A stretch of 64,000 nucleotides of DNA, taken from Bryobacterales bacterium. Its GTDB lineage: Bacteria > Acidobacteriota > Terriglobia > Bryobacterales > Bryobacteraceae. The notes beneath the pieces are model-generated. The model was not told the origin of the DNA. It did not search any database and saw only the letters and a list, made by a program, of their open reading frames with translations. Shown here in pieces: positions 1 to 17,742 of the stretch. The DNA lies in NCBI GenBank assembly GCA_043745195.1, contig JAYTTF010000188.1, forward strand, positions 37,316 through 101,315, in the 5' to 3' direction. Both the position numbers and the translations under genes were made by a program. How positions within the stretch are numbered: the first letter of the stretch is position 1; each line of letters begins with the position of its first letter.

Positions 1-3000
1 TCAACGCCTCGACTTCTGCGTGAAACTGGCGTGACAGAACTTGTGACCGACATTGTTTTGACATGCACCGGCGGGACGCCAACACTGGCGAATGCGCAAA
101 GTCCGCAGACCAACTTTCAGTTGACATCGAATGCGTTCATCACAACTCCTGTGAACACCGGGTTCATTGCACCTGCTAGCAATCCCTATGCGGCGGCTGG
201 AGCATTTGTATTTTTGGATGAACCCGCAGTAGGTTCGCAGTTCTTATGCGCGGCGCGATTTGCCTGTGCGAGTTTTGGAAATGGTACAGGCCAAGGGTAC
301 TACGGGTCTGGAGCGCAATCGGCGAACACGCCAAACGTTCGCAACGTGTATTCGGCATACTATCCACTTGGAAACACTTCGCAAACAGTTACCGCACCGT
401 CTAGGACAATCGTCTGGGATGGTGTGCCAGTTGATGGGACCAGTTCAGGGGTGCGGATATTCCGATTCACTGGAGTGAGAGTGAGCACGTTGAATTTGGG
501 GACGACTAGTGTTGTTGGTACTATTTCTTCGACGCTGCCAATTACAATCAACAATGCCACCTTGAATTTGGGTACGGTTGGGCATTTCATGACTACTGCA
601 TTGCGCGATGCCAGCGGCACTGATGTATTTCCGCCGACGGGCATCGATTTTCCGCAGAATGTGACGATGAATTTCAAGCGGGCGGCGACTCTGCAATTTC
701 GCAAGGAATTCGCAACGGCATTCCGGCCGCGCACTGCGTCAACTTTGACTAGTCTGGATGCTCCGCCACCGGTGGGACTTGCGGCGCAAACGAGTTTAGG
801 AGCCATCTACAATTCGGAATCCGGATTCTTTAATCCCGCATTTCCAAATGTTGTTCCTGGAGTGGGTAACGCATCGCAATCCGGATTGATGGATCAGGGA
901 ACAAGGCTGGTGGCACGCTTCAATAACCTGCCGGTTGGAGCGCAAGTCTATGTGGACATCTACAATACAGGCGCAGTTCTGGGTGGCCGGGTTGCGCGAT
1001 TGACTGCCTCTGAATTTGGTCCTTTCTCGGCTGCAGCGGCAACGGCTGGGCTGCCTGTAAGTAACGTGGCTCAACTTATAGTAACCAACGGAACTGCGGT
1101 CGCGGTTTGGGAAGTTCTGGGAGCGGATTTCGCCACGGCTATCAGTAATTGGGACTTCGGATTTTACTTGTCGTCTGCGCCGCTATCGGCTACAGTGAGC
1201 CCGACCATTCAAATGAGTGCGGGACCTGTGGATGGAAATGAGTTGCCTGCTAGTTTCTCTGCACCACGATTTATTGCGGGGAGTCCGGCGCGCACGCTTA
1301 TTTCGTACAGCACGCTTCCAAATCCTCCGCCTGCTGTGGTGCTGCCTGCATTGTTAGTAAACCCGGGGCAACTTACTTTTACGGCCTCCCAAGGATTGCC
1401 AAGTCCTGCGGCACAGAGTTTGAGTGTTACTTCCAGTGGCGAGAATTTTCCTTTCAGTGTTTCTTCCGGCGGCAGTTTGCCGCTGACATTAAGTGCGCTA
1501 CGAGGGAACACAGCCGGTTCTGTTTCTGTGGGTGTGAATACGGCTGGCCTTGCGCCCGGTAGTTACAAGGATACAGTTACAATAACTGCCGGCGGCACGT
1601 CGAATGGCAGTGTTTCAGTTCCTATTAGTGTTGTGGTGCGATCGAACCCAGTGATTTCGACGCTTGATCCGCCAGAGGTTGGCGCAGGTGGAGCGGGCTT
1701 CAATTTGACAGTGAATGGTAGAGGATTCCTCACTGGCGCATCGATGAATTTTGGCGGCACTGTGCTGACGCCTATTTCATCGACAGGGGCACAATTGGTG
1801 GTTCCTATTGCCGCAACCTTGATTGCTCAGGCTGGGACAATTCCAGTCTCGGTTACCAATCCTGATGGGGTTGTGTCCAACTCGGTTGACTTCGCAGTGC
1901 GGCGGCTGAACATCACATTATTGACCCCGGCTGTTCGCACGGCAACGTCGGCAGGCTTTGCACTGACCGTGACTGGTACAGGATTCCTGCCCGGCGCAAC
2001 GGTGGAGTTTGGCGGCACTTCGCTGAACCCGATTGGGACAACAGCAAGCTCACTTACTGTGAATGTTGCAGCGAGTGCATTGGTGCAAGCGGGGACGGTT
2101 CAGGTGAGTGTGATGAATCCCAACCGGCAAGTATCGAATTCCCTGCCCTTCGTCATTCGGCCAGTGCCGGTGATTGAATCGGCATCACCGAAACCTATTC
2201 CGTTGGGTAGCGCGGCAGTAACATTGACTGTAACTGGGAGAAACTTTTTTGATGGCGTGAAAATTCAGTGGAACGGGCAAGAACTTGCGACCAACTTTGG
2301 AAGCGCTACGCAACTTGGGGTAAATGTGCCAGCCAACCTGCTAACACAGTTGGGAAGCGCGGTGCTGACGGCAATTACTCCCGACATAGTGGTGTCTGCT
2401 CCTTACATTCAGCCGATTGGTTCCGTTACAATTAGTGTCCCAACGCTAACGGTTGGAGATGGACCGGTGACCGTCGTTATTACGGGTACGGGGTTTGGAC
2501 CCAATCCTGGCGTGCAGTTTTCCTGTCCACCTGCGGCGCTGGCGACGCTTGTGACCACCAGTGGTTCTAACACTTCAGTAACAGCGGTGATTCCGGCAAA
2601 TCTATTGTTGCAGGCCGGCACCTGCCAGATTATTGTGATTGGGCCGAACGGGCCCATTATCGTAGATGTGCCGGTGAACCCACGTCCCCAGATCACAACA
2701 CTTAGCCAGAACAACTCGCCGGCTGGAGGAACTGCACCACTTACATTATTAGTTAGTGGCACTGGTTTTGAGCCGGGTTCAATGGTGCGATGGAACGGTG
2801 CGCCGCTGCCGACAACTCCAGCGACAGGCGGTTTACAGGCGATTGTTCCAGTGACTTTATTAGCCACTCCGGGAAGCGTCACTATTACCGTTGTGGGTCC
2901 GAGAGGTTCTACATCGAACGGAGTGCCATTCACAATTTCGTTACCGCCGGTTAGTTTGCAATTGACCGTTCCGCCGGCAACAACACCAAGCAAGGATGAA

Positions 3001-3603
3001 ACGGTAACACTTGGACTAGGCGCTGCTTTCCCAGTGGATTTGGTGGGAACGCTGACGCTGACTTTCAAAGGCGATGGAATATTACCCGATGACCCCGCCA
3101 TTCAGTTTTCAAACAACAGCCGTACACTGCCAATCAACATACCGGCCGGGACGCGGCCTGCGATAAATGCCGTTTTCAAAACCGGGACGATAGCCGGGGT
3201 GATTACGTTGACTCCACAATTTACGAGCGGCGGCGCAGCGGTGACGGGGACTGGCTTGGGTCCGCAAACATTGACTGTGGCGCGCCTTGCTCCGGTGCTA
3301 ACCGCTGTAACATGCACGCGTGCCAGTGGAGCATTCAATGTTGTGACTGATGGCTATACGAACACGCGGCAAGCTACGCAGGCACAGTTCACATTCACGG
3401 GTGATAATCTGGGAACTGCATCTTTGGGTGTGGATGCTACAACTGCATTTAATACATGGGCAGCGGGGAATTCACCGGGCGGCACGTTCCGCTATACCCA
3501 AGCTTTCAACGTGCAGGGAAATGTAAGCGCGATCACAACAGTTGCGGTGCGGTTGACCAATTCAGTTGGACAATCAGCGGAGCGCAGTGCGAGCTGCCAA
3601 TAA
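1..3603 (+). CDS. Large secreted Ig-like surface protein with tandem IPT/TIG repeats (5' end outside window)
   Basis: Frame 1 is open from nt 1 (no stop before the listed GTG at 31), so the N-terminus is missing. Five ~85-aa IPT/TIG-type repeats lie at ~nt 1648-2940 (e.g. PVISTLDPPEVGAGGAGFNLTVNGRGFLTGASMNFGG...VSVTNPDGVVSNSVDFAV). Composition is Thr/Gly/Val/Asn-rich, typical of beta proteins. TAA at 3601-3603. Confidence 0.8.
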   Translation, partial: STPRLLRETGVTELVTDIVLTCTGGTPTLANAQSPQTNFQLTSNAFITTPVNTGFIAPASNPYAAAGAFVFLDEPAVGSQFLCAARFACASFGNGTGQGYYGSGAQSANTPNVRNVYSAYYPLGNTSQTVTAPSRTIVWDGVPVDGTSSGVRIFRFTGVRVSTLNLGTTSVVGTISSTLPITINNATLNLGTVGHFMTTALRDASGTDVFPPTGIDFPQNVTMNFKRAATLQFRKEFATAFRPRTASTLTSLDAPPPVGLAAQTSLGAIYNSESGFFNPAFPNVVPGVGNASQSGLMDQGTRLVARFNNLPVGAQVYVDIYNTGAVLGGRVARLTASEFGPFSAAAATAGLPVSNVAQLIVTNGTAVAVWEVLGADFATAISNWDFGFYLSSAPLSATVSPTIQMSAGPVDGNELPASFSAPRFIAGSPARTLISYSTLPNPPPAVVLPALLVNPGQLTFTASQGLPSPAAQSLSVTSSGENFPFSVSSGGSLPLTLSALRGNTAGSVSVGVNTAGLAPGSYKDTVTITAGGTSNGSVSVPISVVVRSNPVISTLDPPEVGAGGAGFNLTVNGRGFLTGASMNFGGTVLTPISSTGAQLVVPIAATLIAQAGTIPVSVTNPDGVVSNSVDFAVRRLNITLLTPAVRTATSAGFALTVTGTGFLPGATVEFGGTSLNPIGTTASSLTVNVAASALVQAGTVQVSVMNPNRQVSNSLPFVIRPVPVIESASPKPIPLGSAAVTLTVTGRNFFDGVKIQWNGQELATNFGSATQLGVNVPANLLTQLGSAVLTAITPDIVVSAPYIQPIGSVTISVPTLTVGDGPVTVVITGTGFGPNPGVQFSCPPAALATLVTTSGSNTSVTAVIPANLLLQAGTCQIIVIGPNGPIIVDVPVNPRPQITTLSQNNSPAGGTAPLTLLVSGTGFEPGSMVRWNGAPLPTTPATGGLQAIVPVTLLATPGSVTITVVGPRGSTSNGVPFTISLPPVSLQLTVPPATTPSKDETVTLGLGAAFPVDLVGTLTLTFKGDGILPDDPAIQFSNNSRTLPINIPAGTRPAINAVFKTGTIAGVITLTPQFTSGGAAVTGTGLGPQTLTVARLAPVLTAVTCTRASGAFNVVTDGYTNTRQATQAQFTFTGDNLGTASLGVDATTAFNTWAAGNSPGGTFRYTQAFNVQGNVSAITTVAVRLTNSVGQSAERSASCQ

Positions 3604-3606
3604 ATA

Positions 3607-5712
3607 ATGAGTGAGGATTCAGAGAAAACACGGCTTGCAGGAAGCTTGTTGGTCTTAAAAGAACGCTACGAAGTGGAGCGTGAGCTTGGCCGTGGCGGGA
3701 TGAGCGTTGTGTATTTGGCAAGGGACCGCAAGCTGATGAATAAGCGTGTTGTGGTGAAAGTGCTGCTGGACGAATCACAACAAGACGCGTGGATCCGCAA
3801 GAAATTTTTGCAGGAAATGGAAGCACTGGCGCGGATTGATCATCCTGGTGTTGTGGGCGCACTGGACACTGGGGAAACGGCTGAGGGCAGGCAGTTTCTG
3901 GTAATGCAATACATTGAAGGCCAGAATCTTCGACAGGCGTTGGAAAAGGGGCCACTGGAATTCGGTAGGGCGGCAAGCATCTTAAGGCAAGTGGGTCAGG
4001 CGTTGAGCGCTGCGCATGATAAAGGGGTATGGCACCGTGATTTCACCCCGGAAAACATTATGCTGCAAAAGCATGGGGCAAGCGAAGAACACGCCAAAAT
4101 TATTGATTTCGGGATAGCAGGAATTCAGGATTCGGCCTTCGGTGGGGAAAAAACGCAAGTGGCGGGAAAGTATTCGTACATGTCGCCCGAACAGTTTGCT
4201 GGAAAGCCTTCCGCAACGACGGATGTTTATGCCATGGGAATTTGCGCCTATGAAATGATGACTGGGCAGAAGCCGTTCGCGGCAACGCTTGAGCATTTGG
4301 TGTCCGCTGAAAAGGCAAAGCCGGAGCCTCCGCAAAATCTACGCTCCGGGTTACCCGATGAGGCTGGCAGGGCAATTCTGAAAGCTATTTCGTACCGGGA
4401 AGCGGATCGCTTCCAGACGGCTCACGAGTTTGGCGAAGCGATTTCGCAAGCGCTGGTTGCCAAGCAAACGGGGAAAGGAAAGGCGAAGGACCCCAGCAAT
4501 TTGGAAGTGGGTCACATTCTGTTTACGGATCTGGTTGGATATTCGCTTCTGCCCATGGATAAGCAACGGGAATATTTGGCGGAACTGCAGAATATTGTGC
4601 GTGGTTCGGGTGCGTTCAAGAATGCGGAAGACAACGACGATGTGATCAGTTTGCCGACGGGTGATGGAATGGCGCTGTCCTTCTTTGGCGATCCTACACA
4701 GCCGGCGCAATGCTCATTTGAGATTTCAAAAGCTTTGTTGACCCGTCCTCACTTGAAATTGCGCATGGGTATACATTCGGGTCCCGTGTACAAGGTTGCC
4801 GATATCAACGCCAATTCCAATGTGGCAGGCGGCGGCATCAACATGGCGCAACGGGTAATGGATTCGGGAGATGCCGGACACATTCTGGTTTCTGAGGCGA
4901 TGGCAGAAACGTTGATGCAGTTAAGCAGTTGGCGTCCGTACCTGGTGGATTTTGGGGAACGGACAGTGAAGCACGGCGTGATTCTGCATATCTACAATTT
5001 GGCGACGGCTGAATTGGGAAGGACAGTTCTACCGCAGAAATTTGTTGTGGAAATGAAGGAAAAGCGGTCGGCGTCGAATAAGAAACCGATGGCGGCTTTG
5101 GCGGCGGTGGCACTTCTGGGGACTTTGGGATTTGGGGTTTGGAAGTTCATGGTGCCAATTGCGACGCATGAATTGCAATATTTTTTCACTGTGCAGCGCA
5201 GTCGTAACGAGCAGGATTTTGGCCAGGCTTTTCGCAGCGCAGGGAATGTGATTTTTGAAACGGACTATAAAGTGGCGTTGAATGTAACTTCGCCACAGCA
5301 GGGTTATCTTTATGTACTGAACGAAGGGATGGACGCTGAGAAAGGCAAGAAGACTTTCGTGATTCTTTCACCGCTTGCTGGTGCGGAGTGGGATTCGAAG
5401 ATTAGCCAAGGTCAGACGGTGCGCATCCCCAAGGAAAGCTGGTTCCGGATGGATCAGGCTACTGGAACGGAAATTTGCTACGTGGTGTGGTCTGTTGTAC
5501 CCGTGCAGGAAATTGAAAAGCACAAAGCCTCTTCCAATGTTCGAGGTGGAGTGATAAATATTGAGGACGGGGCGTTGATCAGTGAATTACGGGAGTTTTT
5601 GAAAAAGAATTCCGGGGCGCTGGTGGAAAAGAATAATGAGCAAACCAACCAGACGGAACTAAAGGGCACGGGGGATATTCTGGTGCAAAAAATTCCGCTG
5701 AGGCATCAGTGA
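3607..5712 (+). CDS. Receptor-type Ser/Thr protein kinase fused to a class III nucleotidyl cyclase, one TM helix and a C-terminal DUF4384-like extracytoplasmic domain
   Basis: 701 aa. Hanks kinase motifs: LGRGGMSVVY G-loop, VVVKVL lysine, HRDFTPEN catalytic loop, DFG, SPE. Cyclase motifs: FTDLVGYS, GDGMALSFFG, RMGIHSGPV, GGGINMAQR. TM segment AALAAVALLGTLGFGVW. C-terminal YKVALNVTSPQQGYLYVLNEG... resembles DUF4384. Starts 3 nt after the upstream stop. Confidence 0.85.
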   Translation: MSEDSEKTRLAGSLLVLKERYEVERELGRGGMSVVYLARDRKLMNKRVVVKVLLDESQQDAWIRKKFLQEMEALARIDHPGVVGALDTGETAEGRQFLVMQYIEGQNLRQALEKGPLEFGRAASILRQVGQALSAAHDKGVWHRDFTPENIMLQKHGASEEHAKIIDFGIAGIQDSAFGGEKTQVAGKYSYMSPEQFAGKPSATTDVYAMGICAYEMMTGQKPFAATLEHLVSAEKAKPEPPQNLRSGLPDEAGRAILKAISYREADRFQTAHEFGEAISQALVAKQTGKGKAKDPSNLEVGHILFTDLVGYSLLPMDKQREYLAELQNIVRGSGAFKNAEDNDDVISLPTGDGMALSFFGDPTQPAQCSFEISKALLTRPHLKLRMGIHSGPVYKVADINANSNVAGGGINMAQRVMDSGDAGHILVSEAMAETLMQLSSWRPYLVDFGERTVKHGVILHIYNLATAELGRTVLPQKFVVEMKEKRSASNKKPMAALAAVALLGTLGFGVWKFMVPIATHELQYFFTVQRSRNEQDFGQAFRSAGNVIFETDYKVALNVTSPQQGYLYVLNEGMDAEKGKKTFVILSPLAGAEWDSKISQGQTVRIPKESWFRMDQATGTEICYVVWSVVPVQEIEKHKASSNVRGGVINIEDGALISELREFLKKNSGALVEKNNEQTNQTELKGTGDILVQKIPLRHQ

Positions 5713-5724
5713 GGTGAAACAATC

Positions 5725-6963
5725 ATGCGAAAGACTGTAGTAATACTGATGTTGGCGACAGGGTTGCAGGCGCAGGCTCCGAAGTATATTGGTGCGGGCG
5801 GTTGCGCCAGTTCCAATTGCCATGGCGGCACTTCAGCGGCGAATGAAAAAGACAGCCGGATTTGGGGTAACGAGTTCGCGATTTGGCAATTGAACGATAA
5901 GCATTCGAAGGCGTCAAAGGTGCTGTCCGATCCGCGTTCAAAGCGGATGGCGGAAATTTTGAAAATTTCCGATCCGCAGAAAGATGCCAAGTGCACTTCG
6001 TGCCATGCTGCGGGCTCACCGGAAAAGACAGCCAACGATGGGGTAGCTTGCGAGGCCTGCCACGGTCCGGCGGAAAAGTGGTTGGGCACACATACTCAAG
6101 CCAATTCGCATGCTGCAAGTGTTGCCAGCGGAATGGTGGATACGAAGAATATCAGGCTGCGGGCGGGCAACTGCATGGAATGCCATGTAGGTTCAAAAGA
6201 CCGCGTGGTGAACCATGAACTTTATGCGGCTGGGCATCCGGATTTGAATTTTGAATTGGACACGTTCACTTGGGCGCAGCCCGTTCATCATCGCGAGGTG
6301 AAGCCCTCCGCTGGGAACAGCAAACCACGTGTGCGGAACTGGGCGGTGGGACAGGCAACTGGATTGGCAGAAGGGATGCGATTGCTGGCGACGCGCGCGG
6401 CTACCAGTTGGCCGGAATTCGCGGAGCTTGAATGTTACCAATGCCATCACGATTTGCATCAGGATAGCTGGCGGATTCAGCAGGGTTATGGAGCGCGGAA
6501 GCCGGGAAGCCTGCAATTGAATATGGCTCGGTTGACGGTGCTGCGGGTGTTAGTGGCGCAGATGGCTCCAGAGATGCGCGGGGCGCTGGATGGGGCACTG
6601 AACGAAGTTGCGGCATCGGTTTCAAACCAACTGAGCGTAGGCCCAAAGAATGCGGCGGAAAGAGCTGCGGCGTTGGGAGATCAACTGGCCGCAAAATTTG
6701 CGCAGACTGATTTCACGGAACAAAATGCCAGAGCAATTGTGCGCGCATTGGCGGCGGATAGTAACCGAATTGCCGGCAACGGCGTTCATGCAGCGGAAGT
6801 GGCGACGATGTCACTTGACTCGCTTACAGCGGCCATAACAGGCAATTCCAAAGATGCGCAGCAAGCCATGGCGCCTCTGTACGATTACTTAGAGCATCCA
6901 TCGGCGTACACGCCAGTTGGATTCGCCGCACTCTTCCGCAAGGCTGCGGGAGCCGTAAACTAA
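5725..6963 (+). CDS. Secreted pentahaem c-type cytochrome (cytochrome c554-like family)
   Basis: 412 aa. Signal peptide MRKTVVILMLATGLQAQA. Haem-c motifs CASSNCH (CX4CH), CTSCH, CEACH, CMECH, CYQCH. GAGGTGA RBS just upstream. 13-nt gap to the next gene. Confidence 0.85.
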   Translation: MRKTVVILMLATGLQAQAPKYIGAGGCASSNCHGGTSAANEKDSRIWGNEFAIWQLNDKHSKASKVLSDPRSKRMAEILKISDPQKDAKCTSCHAAGSPEKTANDGVACEACHGPAEKWLGTHTQANSHAASVASGMVDTKNIRLRAGNCMECHVGSKDRVVNHELYAAGHPDLNFELDTFTWAQPVHHREVKPSAGNSKPRVRNWAVGQATGLAEGMRLLATRAATSWPEFAELECYQCHHDLHQDSWRIQQGYGARKPGSLQLNMARLTVLRVLVAQMAPEMRGALDGALNEVAASVSNQLSVGPKNAAERAAALGDQLAAKFAQTDFTEQNARAIVRALAADSNRIAGNGVHAAEVATMSLDSLTAAITGNSKDAQQAMAPLYDYLEHPSAYTPVGFAALFRKAAGAVN

Positions 6964-6975
6964 CGAGGAGGCGGA

Positions 6976-9069
6976 ATGAAACTCCGCATCATACTGTTAG
7001 CTGCGGCGCTACTAGCCGCACACACTGGTTATGCGCAGCGGGCGCAATTGCCGGTGAAAGGCCGTCGCGCCGAGAAGGGCCAGCGGGTGAAGCGTACTGC
7101 TTTGCGCAAACTGCCTCGCAAGAAGCCATTGGGACAGACTCTGAACTACGTTGTGCCGCTGGAAGAATTTTTAGCGAGGGAGCGTGCTCGTCCTGTAGTG
7201 GAACGCACGTTTGCGGATGACCGGCTGCGGCGACTGGTTCGTACTGCCCCGGAGTTGGCGCGCATCGCACCCCTGGTGAGATGGGATGAAAAAGCAATTA
7301 ACATTTTGCCACGTCCGGTTTATGTTGACACGCTTGCTGGACTTTTGCCGACCTTCGTTATGCCGGATGTTAGCAAAGAAGATGGAACCGTACCGAACCG
7401 TTGGCGCATTGGATTTCCTGGATGGCGCCGCTACGAGAACAAGAAACTGGACGCGATGTATGCGCGGGAGCGTTGGTATGATCCATTCAATCGCAATCAG
7501 TTCAAGGGTGACTATCCGATTTTTGGACGCAAGAATTTCCTGAACTTCACAGGAGTTTCCGAGACGTTGACTGAGTTTCGGCGAGTGCCGGTGCCAAGTG
7601 TGCAGAGTGCAGCAAGGGCCAATGATTATGGGTTCTTTGGCCAGGGCAATCAGATTGCCGTCCGTCAGAGTTTCCGATTGAGCTTCGATTTGTTCCGCGG
7701 CAGCGCGGGGTTCAAGCCTGTTGATTATGAGCTGCGCATTACTCCTGAGTTCAACATTAATTATTTGAACACCAGGGAGAACGGGTTGACGCGGATCGAC
7801 GTGCGGCAAGGGACGAATCGGACGGATACTAATGTGAGTTTGCAGGAAGCCTTCTTTGAAAAAAGGCTATTCACCAATTCGTTGAGCGCGTTTCGCAAGG
7901 CCAAGGACACTGATGATAACGGAAGCGCCTACTACGATTTCACGTCGTTACGATTGGGCATTCAACGGTTCACTAGCGATTTCAGGGGCTTTGTGTTTTC
8001 TGATGAGCAGCCCGGCGTAAGGCTTTTTGGAAATTTCCACAACAATATTTTTCAGTACAATTTGGCGTATTTCAACATGCTGGAAAAAGATACCAACAGC
8101 GGCTTGAACCGTTGGCGATTGCGGAACCAGCGCGTCTACGCGGCGAATGTTTATTGGAGCGACGCCTTTACCAAAGGCTATACGATGAATTTCAGTTTGC
8201 TGTATAACAACGATCAGCCGACGTTCCACATCGACAAGAATGGCTTTTTGGTAAGGCCAGCGCCGATTGGCTTGCCTGTGGCGCACAAGGTGAGAGCCGG
8301 GTATGCCGGGATTTCCGGGGACGGGCATATTGGCCGCATCAACATTACGCATTCCTTCTATCAGGCTTTTGGGCGGGATGATCTGCACCCATTGCCCGCG
8401 CAGAAGCAGGCGCAACATATTAATGCGCAACTGGCGGCGCTTGAAGTGGCTTACGAATCGGATTGGAAGATTTTCCGTATGTCGGCATTTTATACTTCCG
8501 GCGACAAGGACATCAACGATGGCCAGGCGCGTGGGTTCGATGCCATTGTGCCGAACCAACAGTTCGCTGGCGGTGGATTTCTAGGGAATGCAAGTCTGGC
8601 TGATCGAGGGCTGATTAACAACGCATTTGAAGGCGGCGGGACAAACTTCCTGAACCGTCAGGCGATCCCTTTGACGGGCACTGGTGTGGTTTTGTTTGGA
8701 CCGAATAGTCTGATTCCAAATCTGCGGGCTGGACTTTTTCAAGGTCAGGCAAACTTTATCAACCCGGGTATTTTTCTGGTGAATGCCGGGTTTGACGCGA
8801 AGATAACTCCGAAACTACGTGGGACGATTAACACGAATTATGCACGCTTTATGAGAACCGAGGTGTTGGAAACGTTACTGTTTCAAAGCGGCATCCGGCA
8901 TGGCATTGGCATTGATACAGGCTTTGGCGTGCAATACCGGCCCAAGCTAAATGACAACATTGTGGTGAATTCCGGCTTTGGCATTTTGGTGCCACAAGCA
9001 GGCTTTAAGAATATTTATAACGGGCGAACGCTGTATTCCAGCTTCGTCAATGTGCGGTTGGTGTTTTGA
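6976..9069 (+). CDS. Putative large outer-membrane beta-barrel protein
   Basis: 697 aa. Signal peptide [21 protein letters not shown] followed by a basic linker. Aromatic/Gly/Asn-rich composition with alternating hydrophobicity. C-terminus ...FVNVRLVF has the terminal Phe typical of BAM substrates. GAGGAGG RBS. No family recognised by eye. Confidence 0.65.
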
Positions 9070-12000
9070 TGCGCAAACTCATATTTTCACTTTTGATTTG
9101 GACCGGAAATGCGGCGGCGCAGGACCTGTTGCGGCAATCGATTGACACGATGGCCCGTAAGAGTGAAGGCTGCCAGGCGGCGAAGTGCCATGTGGGTACT
9201 GAGCCAATGCACGCTTCTCCGGCGGTGCATTTGGGCTGTACGGATTGTCATGGCGGCAATGCAACGGCTGTGGATAAAAAGCAAGCGCACGTGGCCTCCA
9301 AACTTAGTAGAGACCAATCGACGGCGAACCCTGTGCGGTCTTACGCGTTGCTAAATAAAGAATCGGCGGAATATATTCGCTTTGTGAATCCAGGGGATTT
9401 GCGAGTGGCGGAGGAAAGCTGTGGTTCCGTGGGTTGCCATGCTCCGACGGTTTATAAAGTACAGCGAAGCATGATGACGCACGGGGCGTTTCTGTGGGGG
9501 GCGGCGTTGTATAATAACGGCGGATCGCCAGTGAAGAATTCTGTGTTTGGGGAAAGCTACGATTCACACGGCATAGCGCGAAAACTGATGACAACCCCTG
9601 CACCCAGCCTGGAAGATACGAAATGGAAAGGCGTGCTGGCTATGTTGTTACCACTTCCTAATTATGAAGCAGCGCAACCGGCCAACACATTGCGCGTATT
9701 TGAACGGGGCGAGGATCGGTTGAGCAATCGAGGCTTTGGAACTTTGACGCGCACTGATCCGGTTGTGCAGGGTCTGCAACGCACACGTTTGTTGGATCCG
9801 CTACTTTCGTTTTCAGGGACGAATGATCAGGCTGGGGATTACCGCGGCTCTGGCTGCACGGGTTGCCATGTGGTTTATGCGAACGACAGGGATCCGGCGC
9901 ATTCCGGCCCTTATGCGAAGAACGGCCATAGTGGAATGAGCTTCACCAACGATCCAACAATTCCGAAGAATGAATCGGGCCATCCCATTCAACACCGGCT
10001 AACCAGAACGATCCCTTCCAGCCAGTGTACGGTTTGCCATATGCATCCAGGAACTTCGTTCGCGTTTCAATATTTGGGTTACATGTGGTGGGACAACGAA
10101 ACCGATGGGGAACACATGTATCCGGACAAGACCAAGCAGTGGAAACCGGAAGACGTTGCGCGATCGCTGGCAAGGAATCCGGAAGCGTCGTCATTGAAAG
10201 GTAAGTGGTCTGATCCGAAATTTCTGGCGAGCCTGACTGATTTGAATCCGAAGTTGAAGCAGACGCAGTTTGCTGATTTCAATGGTCATGGTTGGGTGTA
10301 CCGTGCGGTTTATAAACACGACAAAAAGGGCACCTGGTTGGATAAAGAGGATCAACCGATTACGTTCAACGATCCTGAAAAATTCAAGAAAGCAGTTCAT
10401 TTGAAAGATATCCACCTTGAAAAAGGGATGCATTGTGTGGATTGCCATTTTGAACAGGACAGCCATGGAAACGGCAATTTATATGCTGAGCCGCGGGCTG
10501 CGGTGGAAATTGAATGTGTGGATTGCCATGGGTCGCTGACCAAATATGCGTCGTTGAAAACGTCGGGACCAGCAGCGCCGACACCTCCTCATGATTTGTC
10601 GATTTTGCGAACACCGTTTGGGGAAAGGCGATTTGAATGGCTGGCTGGGAAGTTGATTCAGCGGTCGATGGTTGAAGAGGGGAAGAACTGGAATCTTTCG
10701 CAGGTGAAGGATTCGGTGGTGCCTGGAAGTTGGAACTATAACGAGAAGGCTCGTTTAGCGAAGACAATGCAGAAGGATGGCAAGACTTGGGGATCGTCTA
10801 AGGCGGCGGATATGCTGGCGCACAGCGATGAAAAAATGTCCTGCTATGCTTGCCACACTTCGTGGATGACCAGTTGTTTTGGCTGCCATCTATCGATGAA
10901 GGCTAACGCCAACCGGCCTTCGCTGCACAATGAGGGCGACCCGAATACGCGCAACTTCACCACTTACAATTTTCAGGTGCTGCGCGACGATGTGTTTATG
11001 TTGGGGCTGGATAGCACGGTGAAGAAGAATAAGATTGCACCTGTGCGGTCTTCGAGTGCAGTGCTGGTGGGTTCGCAGAACGCGAATCGGGAATGGCTTT
11101 ATTCGCAACAGCAGACGGTTTCAACCGAAGGGTATAGCGGGCAGGCGTTTAACCCGCACTTCCCGCATACGGTGAGGACTCGCGAATCGAGAACATGCAC
11201 GGATTGCCATGCTTCGAAGGACGGCGACAACAATGCATGGATGGCGCAACTGCTATTGCAAGGCACAAACTTTGTGAATTTCCTGGGTCGCTATGTATGG
11301 GTTGGGGAAGGCAAGCACGGGTTTGAAGGTGTGGTGGTAACGGAGCGAGATGAGCCGCAGGCAGTGATCGGCAGCAACTTGCACAAGTTGGCGTATCCGG
11401 AGAATTTCGCGGCGCATCAAAAATCGAAGCAGGAGTTGAAGGAAGCGTACGAACATCATGGAGACGTGGTGAGTATTCAGATGCGCGGCGAATATGTTTA
11501 TACAGCCAAGGGACATGAAGGAGTTGAAATTTACGACATTGCCAACATTGACAACAAGGCTTTTGCGGAACGCATTACAAGTGCCCCTGTTTCTCCGCTA
11601 GGGCAGAAATTTTCTGTGAAGACGAAAGATGCGCGATGGATTGCTTCGCCTTCGACACTGGCGATTGATCCGGCGCGCCGCAGGCTTGCTGAAAATGAGG
11701 AGCAGCCGATTCATATGCTGTACGCCTATCTATACGTGGCGGATGCAGAAGAAGGATTGATCCTGATTAACGCGGCCACGCTACTGGATGGGGATCCACG
11801 CAACAACTTTATTAAACGTGAAGTGACGTTCAACCCTGGTGGTGCATTGAAAGGTGCGCGGCACGTTGTGATTGCCGGGAACTATGCGTACGTAAGCTGC
11901 GATAAGGGATTGGTGATTGTGGATATCGACAAGCCTGGGACTCCTCGGATTGTGGGCACGCTGCCACTGGAAGGTGCAGGCAATGCGGCCATCCAATTCC

Positions 12001-12602
12001 GGTACGCGTTTGTGTGTACGAAGAAGGGATTGGAAGTTGTGGACATCACTGACGTGGCTACTCCGCAAGCTGTGGCTGTTGTGCCAATGAAAGAGGCGAA
12101 GGATGTTTACCTTGCCAGAACCTACGCTTATGTGGCGGCGGGGCATGAAGGGTTGGCAATCATCGACATTGAGAAAGTGGAAAAGCCGGGAGCGCCGCGA
12201 TACTTCAATGCTGGTGGTGCAATGAACGATGTCCATGCAGTGAAAGTTGGGATGACGAATGCAAGCTTGTTTGCTTATGTCGCCGATGGGAAGAATGGAT
12301 TACGGGTGTTGCAGTTGATGTCGCCCGACCGGTCAGCGGATTTGTGGGGATTTTCGCCGAAGCCTGAAGCACAGTTAATTGCAACGTTTAAGACTAAGGG
12401 TGAAGCGCTGGCTTTATCGAAGGGGCTTGACCGCGACCGTGCAGTGGACGAGAGTGGGAATCAGGTGGCGGTGTTTGGACGGCGCGGTTCGCGACCGTTC
12501 AACCTGGAAGAAATGCGCAAGCTTTATATTCGCAATGGGCAATTGTATACGGTGATTAACGGAGCGCCTGGACCGCCGGTTAGTGAAGGCGGTGCCAAAT
12601 GA
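9066..12602 (+). CDS. Secreted decahaem c-type cytochrome fused to a C-terminal LVIVD-repeat beta-propeller
   Basis: 1178 aa. The likely true ATG is at 9069, overlapping the upstream TGA (TGATG). Signal peptide ...WTGNAAAQ. Eight CXXCH motifs (CTDCH, CTGCH, CTVCH, CVDCH x2, CYACH, CFGCH, CTDCH) plus two CX4CH (CQAAKCH, CGSVGCH). Six LVIVD-type repeats in the last ~400 aa (GVEIYDI, GLILINA, GLVIVDI, GLEVVDI, GLAIIDI, GLRVLQL). Confidence 0.85.
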
Positions 12603-14302
12603 GAAGTGTTGTTCTGATGGCTTTGTTCGCTTCCTTTGTTTTCGCACAGCCGGTGCTGCGAACGGAAATGCGCAATGGTATTGAGCGGGCTTCCTTGCTG
12701 CATGCCAAGAGCGGTGAGCCAGTGACAGATGACGCGCCCGCGTTGCCAGGCGAGACATTGATTCTTGAAGGCGAAGGGTTGGTGGAAGGGCTTACTGTTC
12801 TTGTGGGGGATGCCGCAGTGGCAGTGGTCTTGATGGATGGCGAACACGTTTCCTTTGATCTTCCCGGCGACGTGAGTGGGAGTTTTGTAGAGGTATCGCT
12901 GCAATCGGAAGATGGTCGAAGCAATGTGGCGACGACCACTATCAGTGGTCCGGCCGACCCTGTGCAACTGAGCGGCCTTGAAGTTACCCAGCTAGTAATT
13001 TCGGCGCTGGGAGCGGTAGATGCGCCGGGTCTTGCGGTTGCGGTTGTGGATCGCGCCGGCAATCCATTAGCAATTGACGGCAGAGAACCAACGACAGAGG
13101 CAATCGAAACGGCTTTATCCTTAGCGCGTACGGGTGCTTTCTTCAGCCATAACGAAGCTCCGCTTTCATCGCGCACTGTGCGATTTATCAGCACCGAACA
13201 TTTTCCTGAAGGAATTCCCAACCAACCAGCAGCGGCATTATTTGGTATAGAGAATACCAACCGCGGGTGCACACTATCGAACGACTATTTGCCAAATAAA
13301 GCGGTTCCGCCCGCTCTCAATTCTTCGGGAACCGGACCTGGAAAGGGCATCAGTACAATACCGGGTGGCATTCCACTTTACCGGAACGGACTAACCCTCA
13401 TAGGCGGAATTGGCGTTGCTGGTGTTCCACCTGACGTTGCGGAATTCGCTGTGGTGGCTGCGACCTTTAGCACTCCTTTCTTTCGTCAGTTGCCACTACC
13501 ATCACCAGGAGCTGTGTATATTGATGGCTTCCGGTTGCCGTTCGTAAATCAGACAACCAGGCCCCCAGGAACCAAACCATTCACAGGTTCTTCCTTTACA
13601 AGATTGTTCAACGCCGGTCGTGCGGCTCCTGAAGGCTGGCTGGTTGGGCCGAAGGCTTCGGCCAGTATGACTGCTGAGGAAGTACGAAGCATCATTGATC
13701 GTGCGGTGGCGCGGGCCAATGTTACTCGTGCGCAAATTCGATTGCCGCTGGGGCGTAGAACAAAAATGGTTATCTCTATCGCCGACTTGGACGGAAACAT
13801 TTTAGGGCTTTTCCGTATGCCTGATGCTACGGTGTTTTCTATTGATGTGGCGGCGACTAAGGCTCGGAACGTGGTCTACTTTTCCGGCACGACACTGAAT
13901 GTGGTGGACCTCCCTGGAGTCACCGCCGGAACTGCTGTCACTAACCGGACCATCGGCTTTGGATCGCAGAGCTTTTTTCCTTCGGGTATTTCGAACGCAC
14001 CCCCCGGACCCTTCCGTGAATTGTATCTGTTCGATTCCGCTAACCCTTGCACGCAAGGCCGGCAAGTGAAGAACGCAAATCAATCGGGGATCGTATTCTT
14101 CCCTGGCTCGTCGCCTCTTTATAAGAGTGGGAAATTGGTGGGTGGCCTTGGCGTTTCCGGTGATGGAGTGGAGCAGGACGACTACGTCACAGCGGGCGGT
14201 GCAGCAGGGTTTGAAGCCCCTGAAACCACGCGCGCGGATCAGTTTTTTATCCGGCAGGTTCGTCTGCCTTATTGGAAATTCCCTCGAAATCCGGAGCAGT
14301 AA
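12599..14302 (+). CDS. Secreted protein with an Ig/IPT-like N-terminus and two GlcG/HbpS-like (DUF336) putative haem-binding domains
   Basis: 567 aa. Signal peptide [18 protein letters not shown]. Two DUF336 signatures: [33 protein letters not shown] and [38 protein letters not shown] overlap with the upstream gene. Confidence 0.75.
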
Positions 14303-16375
14303 ATGTTCAAACAAGCAGTATTCTCCCTGGCAGTATCCGCCGTGCTGGTGGCGCAACAAACTCCTAAGCCGAAGGAGCGAGATTTGGAAATTGTTAGTAC
14401 GGTGAAGCCTGCGTCCGTGCAGAAGTCCGTTGCAATTCCGCATAGCTACGCCTTGGTCATCGGCGTTGGCAAGTATCCATATTTGAGAAAAGATCAGCAG
14501 TTGCCTTTTGCTGAACCCGATGCCGAATCGATGTTCAACATTCTGATTAGCCGTGAAGGCGGCAATTTCAAATTTGAAAATGTACATAGGTTGATTGGTG
14601 CAGATGCCAGTCTTGCAAACATCCGCAAAGAACTGGAAGTGTGGTTGCCGTCAGTAGCCCAGGATGGGGATCGAGTGCTGGTCTACTTTGCGGGGCACGG
14701 ATTTGTGGCGGATGGAAAAGGCTTTCTGGCTCCGGCTGATGTTCGGCCAAGCGACCTTAAGAAGACTGGTTATCCAATGGATCAGTTGGGTTCCGTGTTC
14801 GCAGGCCGGATTAAGGGAAAGTGGAAAGTGCTGTTGACGGATAGCTGTCATAGCGGAGCGATTACGCCCTCGGAGATTGGTGCCATCAACAAGAGCATGA
14901 TTGATCTGGACAAATCTCTGTTCGTGATGACTGCGAGCCGCGACCGCGAAGTTGCCAATGAAAGTGCCGATTTCGGCGGCGGGCATGGAGTGTTCACTTA
15001 CTTTGTGGAACGTGGCATGGGTGGTGCGGCTGATGAAAATGGCGATGGCATTGTGACTGCGGATGAACTGGCCGAATACGTCAGGACGAACGTACGCAAA
15101 GCTACCGGGGGCAAGCAGAATCCAACCAGTGATAAAGGAAGTTTCGATCCGAACATGCTGCTGGCCTACGTCCCAGCACTGGTGAAGCCGGACGCACCAC
15201 CAGCACCCAAGCAAGGCACTATGGTGCTTGAGACGAACATGGATGACGTGGAAGTTTTTGTGGACGGGCAATCGGTTGGTGTTTTGAAAAAAGGAACGGC
15301 GTTACGATTGCCTGGCTTGAAACCTGGACCACATACGGTGCGTGGAGTGAAGATGGGTTACGCCGATGATGGTCCTCGAGAGGAGACTATTTACCCAGGG
15401 CTTGAAAGCACGGTGACGGTGCGCATCCAATTCCGGAAGCAGCCGAAGAAGGCAGCGGTTGAGGAACTGGATCGGGGATTGAAATATTACCGCGACGGGG
15501 GCGAGAACAATTATAAGAAGGCGGCGGAATCTTTCAGCAACTCGTTGAAGCTGGATTCTGAATATAGCCAAGCGGCGCTGTATCTGGGCTTGGCACGCAA
15601 CGCACTGTTCGACAACGAAGGCGCAGAAACAGCGTTCAAGAAAGCCATTGCTCTGCAACCGGACTATCTTGCTGCACGCTTAGGGTATGCGGGAATGCTA
15701 TTCGATATCGGCAATATGGATGAATCGGTGAACCAGTTGCGCGCGGTGCTGCAGCGTGACAAAGACTCCGGAGAGGCTTACTACAAACTTTCCAGAGCCT
15801 ACCGAATGAAGCAGGATTTTGAGCAGGCAATGGTGGCCGCGCAAAAAGCGGTTCAGTTGTTGCCGGCGAAGGCGGAACCTCATTTCTATCTGGCTGAGAG
15901 TTTGCGGTTCAAGCAGCGTTGGGATGAGAGCAAGAAAGAGTATTTGGAATATTTGCGAATGAGCGATTTTGATAGTAAATTGGCGGGGAAACTGGATTTT
16001 TACGTCAAGGGTTTTCTAATTGGTGGTGGAAAGAAGCGACGCCCTTCGCAGGACGACATCTGGCGTGAAATGCGTAGCGGTGCTTACTTCGGAATTTGCG
16101 AATCGGACCAGAAGATGAAACGCTTTGACGAAGCTATTTCTAATTGTCAGAAAGCAATCCGGTACGATCCAAAAGATCCGTTCACAAATCAGAAGTTGGG
16201 GATCACATACGCGAGGAAATACGAACAATCGGTTCAGTTGGAAGACCTTGCTTCGGCTTCAAAGTATTTGAAGGCGATGATTCAATTTGGGCCTGATTTG
16301 GAAGATGCGAAAAATGCCCGGACCATGATTGCGAGTTTTGATCAAGCGCTGCAGCAAGCAGCGGCTGCCAAATAG
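14303..16375 (+). CDS. Periplasmic/secreted caspase-like (peptidase C14) protein with PEGA domain and C-terminal TPR repeats
   Basis: 690 aa. Signal peptide MFKQAVFSLAVSAVLVAQQ. His-Cys dyad contexts YFAGHGFV and LLTDSCHSGA. PEGA-like segment VEVFVDGQSVGV...GPHTVRGVKMGY. Several TPR units follow (e.g. AALYLGLARNALFDNEGAETAFKKAIALQPDY). The ATG directly follows the upstream TAA. Confidence 0.85.
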   Translation: MFKQAVFSLAVSAVLVAQQTPKPKERDLEIVSTVKPASVQKSVAIPHSYALVIGVGKYPYLRKDQQLPFAEPDAESMFNILISREGGNFKFENVHRLIGADASLANIRKELEVWLPSVAQDGDRVLVYFAGHGFVADGKGFLAPADVRPSDLKKTGYPMDQLGSVFAGRIKGKWKVLLTDSCHSGAITPSEIGAINKSMIDLDKSLFVMTASRDREVANESADFGGGHGVFTYFVERGMGGAADENGDGIVTADELAEYVRTNVRKATGGKQNPTSDKGSFDPNMLLAYVPALVKPDAPPAPKQGTMVLETNMDDVEVFVDGQSVGVLKKGTALRLPGLKPGPHTVRGVKMGYADDGPREETIYPGLESTVTVRIQFRKQPKKAAVEELDRGLKYYRDGGENNYKKAAESFSNSLKLDSEYSQAALYLGLARNALFDNEGAETAFKKAIALQPDYLAARLGYAGMLFDIGNMDESVNQLRAVLQRDKDSGEAYYKLSRAYRMKQDFEQAMVAAQKAVQLLPAKAEPHFYLAESLRFKQRWDESKKEYLEYLRMSDFDSKLAGKLDFYVKGFLIGGGKKRRPSQDDIWREMRSGAYFGICESDQKMKRFDEAISNCQKAIRYDPKDPFTNQKLGITYARKYEQSVQLEDLASASKYLKAMIQFGPDLEDAKNARTMIASFDQALQQAAAAK

Positions 16376-16404: not shown

Positions 16405-17742
16405 ATGGCTTTTGTATCAAGTTTTCCTCTTTTTGTCGTTGTGATTTCACCTCTTGCTTTACCTGCTGTAATCCCAACCTTCTCAAAAGACGTTGCGCCG
16501 CTGTTCTACAAACATTGCGCCGGTTGTCATAGGCCGAATGACATTGCGCCCATGTCGTTGCTGGATTATAAGACAGCACGTCCCTGGGCGAAGTCGATCA
16601 AGCAAGCCGTGGCAAGCCGGAAAATGCCGCCGTGGTTTGCGGATGCGAAGTTTGGACACTTTTCTAATGACCCCAGCTTGACCGCAAATGAAATCCAAAC
16701 CATCACCGCGTGGGCGGATGCTGGTGCGCCGGAAGGAGACCCTGCAGTATTGCCGGCGCGTCCAAAATTCGTCGAAGGCTGGCAGTTGGGTAAGCCTGAC
16801 TTGATCGTCGATATGGGCGAGGATCACCAGATCAAAATGGGCGAGGATGCTTATGAGCACTTCACGGTGAATACGAACTTCAAGGAAGGAAAGTGGATTC
16901 GTGCGGCAGAGATAAAACCAGGCAATCGTCAAGTGGTGCATCATGTTCATGTCTTGTTGGTACAGGACGATTTGAAATTGATGGAAGTGGCGTCTACAAC
17001 GAATTCGCCGGCTCTTTCAAAGTATCTGGTGAAGGAAGACAAGCTGACGCGGATTCGTGCGGATGCTCCGGTTGTGAACGATGCTTGCGCAGCCAATTTG
17101 CCGAACTTGCCGTTTCTTACAGGCTCGCAGGAAGGCGCCTTGGCATCGTTTCTGCCAGGCCGTCCACCTGATACATTTCCAGCAGGAACGGCAAAATGGA
17201 TTCCTGCAGGGTCGAAGCTTGAGTTCGTTGTGCACTACGCGCGAACCACAGGCAAGCCGCAAACGGATCGTACCAGCGTGGGATTCTATCTGGCAGATGG
17301 GCCGCCGGATCAAGTGATGCGGCGCATGGATCTGCGCAACTTCTTCCTCAGCATTCCTGCCGGTGAAAGCAATCACACGGTTCGGCGATGCTATGATTTC
17401 GATCAGGATAAACTGCTGCTTTCCTTCACTCCGCATATGCACTACCGAGCCAAGGATGCCACCTATGAATTGACGCGGCCTAATGGGAATTTGGAAGTTT
17501 TGCTGGCGGTGCCGCACTACGATTTCAATTGGCAGTTGGTTTATCGGCTGCAGAAGCCGGTGATGGTGGAAAAGGGCAGCCGCTTGATGGTGACGGTGCA
17601 TTATGACAATAGCGCCAACAACCGGGCAAATCCTGATCCAAAGCAGATTGTACGTTGGGGCGATAAGAGTGAAGAAGAGATGATGACCAGTTGGATTGAG
17701 TATCTGGATGCTCCTGCTGCGGTGGCGAAGAGTGGCAAATGA
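16405..17742 (+). CDS. Haem-c domain fused to a PHM/DBH-like (copper type II ascorbate-dependent monooxygenase-like) domain
   Basis: 445 aa. N-terminal hydrophobic signal/anchor. Single CAGCH motif in the context FSKDVAPLFYKHCAGCHRPNDIAPMSLLDY...RKMPPW. Downstream copper-ligand-like pattern VVHHVHV ... VVHYA ... TPHMHYRA ... EEEMMTSW, plus HYDFNWQ. Confidence 0.7.
   Translation: MAFVSSFPLFVVVISPLALPAVIPTFSKDVAPLFYKHCAGCHRPNDIAPMSLLDYKTARPWAKSIKQAVASRKMPPWFADAKFGHFSNDPSLTANEIQTITAWADAGAPEGDPAVLPARPKFVEGWQLGKPDLIVDMGEDHQIKMGEDAYEHFTVNTNFKEGKWIRAAEIKPGNRQVVHHVHVLLVQDDLKLMEVASTTNSPALSKYLVKEDKLTRIRADAPVVNDACAANLPNLPFLTGSQEGALASFLPGRPPDTFPAGTAKWIPAGSKLEFVVHYARTTGKPQTDRTSVGFYLADGPPDQVMRRMDLRNFFLSIPAGESNHTVRRCYDFDQDKLLLSFTPHMHYRAKDATYELTRPNGNLEVLLAVPHYDFNWQLVYRLQKPVMVEKGSRLMVTVHYDNSANNRANPDPKQIVRWGDKSEEEMMTSWIEYLDAPAAVAKSGK

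Follow-up and report, generated by a model that had tools for sequence, protein, structure and literature searches.

The subject of this work is a block of four genes, here called g1 to g4, in a 64,000-nt window of DNA (the whole stretch that was analysed) from the Bryobacterales bacterium GCA_043745195.1, contig JAYTTF010000188.1, positions 37,316 to 101,315 of the forward strand; coordinates below are window positions, and all block genes lie on the plus strand (Table 1). We found that these genes, which encode a pentahaem cytochrome (g1), an outer-membrane beta-barrel (g2), a decahaem cytochrome with a C-terminal LVIVD-type propeller (g3), and a secreted HbpS-like protein (g4), form with their neighbours a real, tightly linked set, i.e., a functional unit rather than a chance neighbourhood, in which the g2-g3 pair is the core and g1 and g4 travel with this pair across phyla. 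We favour, with a probability of about 0.5, the reading that the block makes up the outer half of a system of the porin-cytochrome cluster (PCC) type that is conserved in several phyla, in which a porin and multihaem cytochromes would carry electrons across the envelope and so link the cell interior with a redox substrate located at the outer membrane.

Gene linkage in the window and in three lineages

The junctions of the block were read directly from the sequence. g1 and g2 are separated by 12 nt with GGAGG inside, g2 and g3 overlap at TGATG, and g3 and g4 overlap at ATGA; both overlaps agree with a preliminary description of this DNA, which had put the first gap at 13 nt. That description also took the block to be four genes. 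The coupling reaches further: g1 follows 12 nt after the stop of a kinase gene, itself 3 nt downstream of a 1190-aa open reading frame (ORF), and at the other end the g4 stop runs directly into the start of a caspase-tetratricopeptide repeat (caspase-TPR) gene (TAAATG). A scan for promoters and terminators returned fewer sites than in shuffled sequences and no boundary within the block. Two further statements of the description held on inspection, namely that all four proteins carry signal peptides (their N-termini look Sec-like) and that there are 15 haem-c motifs, which we counted as 5 in g1 and 10 in g3.

Neighbourhoods were surveyed in Acidobacteriota with one genome per species, giving 80 loci, all from metagenome-assembled genomes (MAGs) and nearly all acidobacterial (Bryobacterales, Terriglobales/Acidobacteriaceae, and Blastocatellia); a MAG from Bryobacterales shares 97% identity with the window. 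Every acidobacterial locus with room for both genes has g3 next to g2, and the pair is often translationally coupled. g1 and g4 flank the pair in Bryobacterales only; other Terriglobia have g4 upstream on the opposite strand and g1 at 4 to 5 kb downstream, and in Blastocatellia the pair stands alone amid ilv and pentose-phosphate genes, which makes it the minimal unit. Seven loci (L007, L008, L047, L061, L063, L065, and L079) come from MAGs labelled Anaerolineales, Acidimicrobiia, Dormiibacterota, Verrucomicrobiia, Limnocylindrales, Clostridia, and Rhodanobacteraceae; their identities fall within Acidobacteriota clades, and they are probably mis-binned contigs.

Two gammaproteobacterial loci (L082 and L083, related to an Arenicella-labelled MAG) hold the whole seven-gene set as one operon, encoding an Fe-S protein, a membrane protein, an anchored decahaem cytochrome, the HbpS-like protein, the barrel, the LVIVD decahaem protein, and two c554-like pentahaem cytochromes, with one c554-like gene divergently transcribed at the upstream end. 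Compared with the window proteins, g3 is 51% identical over 1136 residues; the values for g2, g1, and g4 are 36, 32, and 29%. Between Acidobacteriota and Gammaproteobacteria, components other than g3 range from 26 to 36%. Just upstream of the cluster, L082 carries a weakly PilN-like gene and a type II secretion system M (T2SS-M) subtype b gene (L082 1-1677), and these might point to machinery of a secretion or pilus type close by; the two genes in the corresponding place of L083 have no Pfam match.

A homologue search with a mixed alignment returned only 12 gammaproteobacterial relatives, and a Planctomycetota-like branch was reached through a metagenome scan. This third-lineage set comprises 80 metagenome contigs from ocean (one of them TARA), freshwater, and soil, with one related cluster labelled Planctomycetota, and was scored together with the two gammaproteobacterial loci (82 in total). 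In 61 of the 82 loci, the barrel gene has the decahaem-propeller gene as its neighbour, and HbpS-like genes lie upstream in 31; the third-lineage contigs also have two c554-like genes (5 haems each) and genes for the anchored decahaem cytochrome, the membrane protein, and the Fe-S protein nearby. The cluster look-ups returned no cultured carrier. Altogether, barrel-decahaem synteny, which the preliminary description had proposed to follow across genomes, is found in Acidobacteriota, Gammaproteobacteria, and the third lineage.

The barrel and its decahaem-propeller partner

The g2 protein has no cysteine, is rich in basic residues (92 K+R versus 60 D+E), and ends in RLVF. Its AlphaFold2 (AF2) model, computed from an alignment of 99 homologues, has a mean predicted local distance difference test score (pLDDT) of 70, with 75 to 93 in the barrel, and shows ~18 long strands between residues 187 and 696 after ~180 unstructured residues. 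The outer-membrane barrel with terminal RLVF and without an MtrB-like N-terminal CXXC, as the preliminary description had it, is therefore borne out. When the model was compared with PDB structures by Foldseek, the best match was AlgE (18 strands; E ~1e-14; template modelling [TM] score 0.63 to 0.67 relative to the target), followed by Campylobacter MOMP, OprD/Occ channels, and general porins, the top matches ranging from E 1e-14 to 1e-9 and TM 0.6 to 0.67; MtrB was outside the top 50. By sequence, g2 has no Pfam or NCBIfam match at E ≤ 0.01, and so none to MtrB/PioB (PF11854, TIGR03509) or AlgE (PF13372), and neither the single sequence nor a profile found a relative among PDB sequences, a set that includes MtrB of 6R2Q. 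These searches place g2 in no characterised sequence family of outer-membrane proteins. The g2 family itself is large: a full-library profile search returned 1798 clusters at 50% identity with E ≤ 1e-3, and 543 with E ≤ 1e-30.

Identity among g2 proteins is ~60% across Bryobacterales, which is unusually high for an outer-membrane protein. In 99 Acidobacteriota sequences, conservation peaks in a pre-barrel segment and in a ~90-residue loop, with many invariant arginines. The pre-barrel motif is invariant in these sequences and is kept in distant relatives with unrelated N-terminal extensions; AF2 confidence is low over it, and it may be a plug or docking peptide. The loop has dense invariant residues from G520 to G598, is conserved also across phyla, and is predicted to contain no long strand, and it is a candidate in-lumen constriction or partner-binding site. 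In AlgE, extracellular loops fold into the lumen and the pore is basic. In Terriglobia-type loci, the barrel begins with a CarboxypepD_reg domain (L048 9230-11599), not with the basic disordered extension found in the window; by eye, the N-terminal extensions of other distant relatives resemble HEAT-like repeats, FN3, and SPOR- or AMIN-like segments.

An ~18-strand barrel of the AlgE/OprD type makes an Mtr-style threaded cytochrome unlikely. In such a conduit, g1 or the haem domain of g3 would lie inside g2, and g3 would be exposed at the surface as the terminal enzyme that reduces or oxidises insoluble minerals or electrodes. The order cytochrome, barrel, large cytochrome does mimic mtrA/B/C-type clusters; all haems are possibly six-coordinate, the density of the g3 haem domain (10 haems over ~745 residues) is similar to that of MtrC, the propeller could bind a surface or mineral, and PilN-like and T2SS-M-like genes lie upstream in L082. 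However, by simple barrel geometry an 18-strand lumen would be at most ~20 Å wide before any loops are placed in it, and MtrB is not among the top 50 structural matches. No component matches the MtrB/PioB, MtrA/DmsE, or MtrC families, the signal peptide of g3 has no lipobox cysteine, outside Bryobacterales g1 and the barrel are not neighbours, and g3 is conserved far above what is usual for surface cytochromes. We regard a threaded conduit as improbable. Because the predicted barrel looks too narrow to enclose a cytochrome and has a conserved, lumen-sized loop and many invariant arginines, a role for g2 as a selective channel or docking site is favoured.

The AlgE-like fold is also relevant to a different proposal, in which the barrel exports g3 or anchors it at the surface, as suggested for OmcE/OmcS nanowire clusters, and the caspase-TPR protein is an assembly or processing factor (compare AlgK-AlgE). 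In OmcE clusters, multihaem cytochromes are always accompanied by propeller lipoproteins and a large barrel (bioRxiv 10.1101/2025.10.22.684050), and in the peat cluster EET1 a cytochrome occurs with a porin and an NHL propeller scaffold (2026 peat preprint); in the window, the TPR protein abuts the block, and it accompanies the barrel in Acidobacteriaceae-type loci. Yet a folded haem protein of 130 kDa should not be able to pass an 18-strand barrel, the caspase-TPR gene is missing in the gammaproteobacterial and third-lineage loci, the cluster has no polymerising small cytochrome, and no sequence homology to the Omc companion proteins was found, no search having been aimed at it. We consider secretion or anchoring doubtful at best.

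Of the 22 cysteines of g3, 20 lie inside haem motifs. In a ten-sequence alignment spanning the lineages, 297 of 1177 positions are invariant, and among them are all 30 haem-motif Cys and His residues; their invariance across phyla puts the motifs far beyond chance, and all ten motifs are retained in every full-length orthologue. The haem domain has 12 further invariant His and 2 invariant Met residues, sufficient for ten six-coordinate electron-transfer haems. Pfam recognises a c3-type haem segment (PF14537, 41 bits), and residues 447 to 717 resemble part of Geobacter ExtM (NF040943; 84.1 bits, below the equivalog cutoff of 800), a multihaem module common to ExtM and ExtN; neither Pfam nor NCBIfam gives a match of g3 to the MtrA/DmsE or MtrC families. 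More than 8000 database proteins match g3, and among the matches listed, which are 56 to 98% identical, all are named hypothetical. As the preliminary description noted, haem density is below that of MtrA: g1 has 5 haems in 412 aa, and MtrA-type proteins have ~10 in ~330 residues.

The six-repeat LVIVD propeller of the large cytochrome, also named in that description, is supported by PF08309 (74.7 bits versus a cutoff of 20.2), by six motifs visible in the translation, and by an AF2 model (pLDDT 74; predicted TM score 0.81) with values mostly above 90 in the propeller and low to moderate in the haem domain. Foldseek with this model returned generic propellers only (WD40, cd1 nitrite reductase, and AztD) and no structural relative of the haem domain, and neither the g3 sequence nor a g3 profile found anything significant among PDB sequences (best profile E 0.38 to 0.6). 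None of the invariant propeller residues is His, Cys, or Met; they are rich in D, N, E, and R and include DRDRxxDE. These features suggest that g3 combines an electron-transfer decahaem unit with a binding domain, rather than with a cofactor-bearing catalytic propeller. Its very high conservation and the lack of a lipobox lean towards a periplasmic location.

Enzyme-like conservation of g3 (51% across phyla) would also suit a periplasmic detoxifying or catalytic enzyme that acts on peroxide, other reactive oxygen species, or an Se, Te, or S oxyanion entering via g2, with g4 as a haem or oxidant sensor or protector like Streptomyces HbpS. The module held in common with ExtM fits this proposal, as that protein belongs to the selenite/tellurite-linked ext cluster, in which ExtI is thought to admit soluble oxyanions and not to sheath a cytochrome (Jahan et al. 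2018, PMC5877670); so do the basic, arginine-rich barrel, the HbpS-like family of g4, and the occurrence in soil and marine metagenomes, including the TARA ocean contig. Nonetheless, Pfam and NCBIfam gave no match of the cytochromes to NrfA, HAO, or octahaem tetrathionate/nitrite reductase families beyond a sub-threshold NrfB fragment (16 bits versus 184), and with the PDB profile search this argues against orthology to such soluble enzymes, which the preliminary description had raised as the competing possibility. Moreover, the invariant His and Met residues suffice for ten six-coordinate haems and leave none that is obviously open for catalysis, no metal-ligand signature is seen in the propeller, and at least 25 haems with a dedicated transmembrane input would be more elaborate than known detoxifying enzymes. 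An enzyme of this kind is, in our view, unlikely.

Partner proteins, inner-membrane input, and the proposed electron path

All ten cysteines of g1 lie inside its haem motifs (4 CXXCH and 1 CX4CH, at residues 27, 90, 109, 150, and 237). Its c554 domain is recognised by Pfam (PF13435; 33.5 bits versus a cutoff of 20.8), and its scores stay below cutoff for MtrA/DmsE in NCBIfam (TIGR03508; 21.3 versus 192.2 bits) and for MtrC/OmcA-type outer-surface decahaem proteins (PF22113 and relatives; 17.2 versus 30 bits). g1 orthologues adjoin the barrel in Bryobacterales and are found elsewhere within the cluster in other lineages; we propose that g1 is a periplasmic electron carrier. g4 matches PF03928 over two stretches (77.1 bits versus a cutoff of 25), and its PDB relatives are EfgA and the PduO C-terminal domain; one orthologue has a weak TIG match. 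The double DUF336/HbpS protein of the preliminary description is thus confirmed as a family member in the coupled block, its haem binding being putative. Orthologues of g4 occur in the cluster in all three lineages, often upstream and on the opposite strand.

A conserved trio accompanies the cluster in 45 to 48 of 81 loci and consists of a cytoplasmic cNMP-binding 4Fe-4S protein, a membrane protein of ~300 aa, and a membrane-anchored cytochrome with about ten haems; outside the window's subclade, most relatives with enough flanking sequence carry this input module. The Fe-S protein has an FHA domain in Bryobacterales and, in the gammaproteobacterial loci, a Pyr_redox_2 FAD/NAD(P)H domain and two cNMP domains; there it matches PF13247 (L082), and its gene lies upstream of that for the membrane protein. 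A PP2C phosphatase and a kinase are encoded between the trio and g1 in Bryobacterales. The membrane protein has five helices and no family match. Among 47 orthologues, H87 and H101 are present in all 47, H277 in 45, and H291 in 44; a Trp precedes the first His of each pair by four residues (WX3HX13H), and SGxxG is invariant. In the inner-membrane proteins of the candidate clusters PCC3 and PCC4, five helices with WX3HX13H on helices 3 and 5 and SGXXG on helix 4 have been taken to indicate two b-haems, as in ferric-reductase/NADPH oxidase (NOX) domains and cytochrome b (He, Barco, Emerson & Roden 2017 Front Microbiol 8:1584; PMC5566968). The presence of an electron-input module of the inner membrane next to the cluster in relatives strengthens the reading of electron transfer across the envelope.

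In the porin-cytochrome reading, electrons would pass from the cytoplasmic Fe-S protein to the two b-haems of the membrane protein, then to the anchored decahaem cytochrome, and on to g1 and g3; the reverse direction along the same path is also possible. g3 would work with the g2 barrel at the outer membrane, where g2 would act as a selective channel or docking site that brings a soluble, probably anionic redox substrate (a metal chelate, a humic-type quinone, or an oxyanion) to periplasmic g3. The propeller and the conserved barrel motifs might mediate g2-g3 contact, and the kinase, PP2C, FHA, and cNMP domains might gate electron flux. The barrel would then work in a way closer to ExtI or PCC4 than to MtrAB.

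The input module also permits a broader proposal, which we put forward tentatively as possible but not probable: the block would be the outer end of a quinone-independent electron-export chain spanning the whole envelope, widespread in aerobic soil Acidobacteriota, marine Gammaproteobacteria, and Planctomycetota, and serving extracellular chemistry (reduction of Fe(III), Mn, or humics, or production of superoxide), not classical anaerobic respiration. Electrons would flow from NAD(P)H or ferredoxin through a cNMP-gated, phospho-regulated Fe-S protein, a NOX/FRD-like dihaem-b protein, and at least 25 c-haems to the decahaem-propeller/barrel pair. Export of NAD(P)H electrons via a dihaem-b protein would dissipate membrane potential, so regulated, non-respiratory extracellular chemistry fits at least as well as respiration.

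Several points weigh against the porin-cytochrome reading as preferred here. Five contigs (L112, L117, L123, L158, and L161) carry the barrel gene followed by several kb of sequence but without an adjacent decahaem gene, three of them keeping the upstream HbpS-like gene, so that the pairing of barrel and cytochrome is very frequent, not absolute. The inner-membrane module is absent from the window and is thus tied to this genome by orthology only. The strand count and loop position come from a single AF2 model of moderate confidence (pLDDT 70), contact between g2 and g3 is drawn from gene coupling alone, and the system as a whole is known from genes and models alone. Six-coordinate haems with a cofactor-less propeller would suit a surface-exposed terminal reductase equally well, and a respiratory role is not obvious since the hosts include apparently aerobic heterotrophs.

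The coupled neighbours of the block are included in Table 1. The kinase upstream of g1 is likely a regulator; other Bryobacterales have at this site a different kinase and a PP2C phosphatase. Homologues of the caspase-TPR protein with ~51% identity are encoded directly upstream of the barrel in Acidobacteriaceae-type loci, and this protein may be a lineage-specific factor for assembly, maturation, or processing. The 1190-aa ORF upstream of the kinase is confined to the subclade of the window, being complete in L004 and L041 and partial in L042; there, this ORF and a longer kinase take the place of the trio. At 16405-17742, 29 nt after the caspase-TPR gene, lies a gene with one CXXCH and a copper type II monooxygenase C-terminal domain, conserved at this position only in L004, L006, and L041. 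Window positions 20000 to 64000 appear to hold ordinary housekeeping and regulatory genes (for example those for ribosomal protein S1, peptidases of types S9, M3, and M16, a sigma-54 two-component pair, and a sugar epimerase/dehydratase) and no genes for cytochrome maturation or secretion.

Table 1. Genes and sub-gene features of the block and its flanks, in window positions
Feature	Position	Strand	Length (aa)	Description
Repeat-rich protein	31-3603	+	1190	No Pfam match; Ig/IPT-like repeats by eye
Ser/Thr protein kinase	3607-5712	+		Cyclase-like segment, membrane span, periplasmic DUF4384; PF00069 (138.6 bits), DUF4384, Guanylate_cyc
g1	5725-6963	+	412	Secreted pentahaem cytochrome; N-terminal part c554-like, C-terminal part helical
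g2	6976-9069	+	697	Outer-membrane beta-barrel, ~18 predicted strands, residues ~180-697; basic N-terminal extension
g2 pre-barrel motif	7393-7530	+		Residues ~140-185; consensus DRWRxG...DRY...DPYNxNxLKGDxP
g2 long loop	8497-8769	+		Residues ~508-598, between predicted strands 13 and 14
g3	9069-12602	+	1177	ATG start; alternative in-frame TTG at 9066
g3 haem domain	9069-11300	+		Ten c-type haem sites: 8 CXXCH and 2 CX4CH
g3 C-terminal beta-propeller	11301-12602	+		Six LVIVD-type repeats
g4	12599-14302	+	567	Secreted; Ig-like N-terminal part and two HbpS-like (DUF336) domains
Caspase-like peptidase (Peptidase_C14)	14303-16375	+		Secreted; with PEGA and TPR; PF00656 (55 bits) and TPR families

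Significance and comparison with known systems

In soil and peat, Acidobacteriota rank among the most abundant bacteria, and to our knowledge their electron exchange with iron, manganese, and organic matter is largely uncharted. The system described here is large and widespread, with ~1800 barrel clusters, a g3 protein ~50% identical across phyla, and occurrence in soil, freshwater, and ocean metagenomes. If it is an envelope electron route, it would add a major pathway to models of redox cycling in soil and peat, provide marker genes for metatranscriptomics, and represent a pairing of a cytochrome with a small barrel distinct from the Mtr paradigm; in bacteria, the dihaem-b protein and the Fe-S/NAD(P)H protein that partners it in the cytoplasm would correspond to transmembrane electron export of the NOX type.

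A beta-propeller and a large barrel also occur with multihaem cytochromes in proposed extracellular electron transfer loci of the OmcE/OmcS, Tenderia, and EET1 types, and likewise in a Desulfovibrio ferrophilus cluster. In these loci, however, the propeller is a separate NHL-type protein or lipoprotein, whereas here it is of LVIVD type and fused to the decahaem domain. The Bryobacterales peat cluster EET2 was considered as a possible instance of the present system and rejected: it has an MtrC-like protein, a DmsE-like protein, and a TonB-type porin. AlgE and the OprD/Occ channels are the best structural matches of g2 and, as proposed for g2, have loops folded into the lumen, the AlgE pore also being basic; in contrast, g2 has no match to their sequence families, a ~180-residue extension with the pre-barrel motif, and no genes for alginate or other polysaccharide synthesis in its block.

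The Geobacter ext cluster (ExtHIJKLMNOPQS) resembles the present system in joining a small porin-like protein, ExtI, with multihaem cytochromes and inner-membrane redox proteins, and in the module of g3 residues 447 to 717 common to ExtM and ExtN, a likeness at the domain level only (84 bits versus 800). It differs in its Rieske/cytochrome b pair, rhodanese, and selenoprotein, and it has neither a propeller fusion nor an HbpS-like protein.

With MtrCAB, MtoAB, and PioAB, the block has in common the neighbourhood of a periplasmic multihaem cytochrome, a barrel, and a large decahaem protein, and a likely part in envelope electron transfer. The preliminary description had drawn its analogy with this group and proposed an outer-membrane electron conduit. 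The part of that proposal concerning electron transfer across the envelope stands, as a system of PCC type; an Mtr-like mechanism is not supported, given the ~18 strands of the model (26 in MtrB), its AlgE, MOMP, and OprD matches, and the lack of homology to MtrB/PioB, MtrA/DmsE, and MtrC. The possibility, raised in the same place, that the barrel would prove too narrow or plugged is indeed touched by the predicted strand number and the conserved ~90-residue loop. Unlike MtrCAB, the present system has a barrel without CXXC and a large cytochrome without a lipobox, and in relatives electrons would enter through a dihaem-b membrane protein that is paired with an Fe-S protein in the cytoplasm, rather than by CymA-type oxidation of quinol.

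The closest known systems are the candidate clusters PCC3 and PCC4, the comparison with PCC4 being one of descriptions, not sequences. PCC4 has been reported in Planctomycetes and in the Zeta-, Gamma-, and Alphaproteobacteria. Its parts are a porin, an inner-membrane protein, and periplasmic cytochromes with 4, 5, and 10 haems, and in subgroup II an Fe-S (pfam13247) gene lies upstream of that for the inner-membrane protein (PMC5566968). A porin adjoining 5- and 10-haem cytochromes is thus found in both, and the inner-membrane protein of 47 relatives has the same signature as that of PCC3/PCC4, with an Fe-S gene upstream of it, features of the relatives and not of the window. The haem numbers differ, being 5 (often twice), 10, and 10 here, with no 4-haem protein among the clusters examined. 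He et al. (2017) describe no propeller fusion, HbpS-like protein, cNMP, FAD, or FHA domains, kinase, or Acidobacteriota, and a full-text literature search on LVIVD or DUF336 with multihaem cytochromes and on propellers of Acidobacteria found no description of this cluster. The preliminary description was not aware of a published account of this combination of parts. Its layout of porin, 5- and 10-haem cytochromes, Fe-S protein, and inner-membrane protein was already known from PCC3/PCC4 (PMC5566968), whereas a fused propeller and an HbpS-like partner are not mentioned there.

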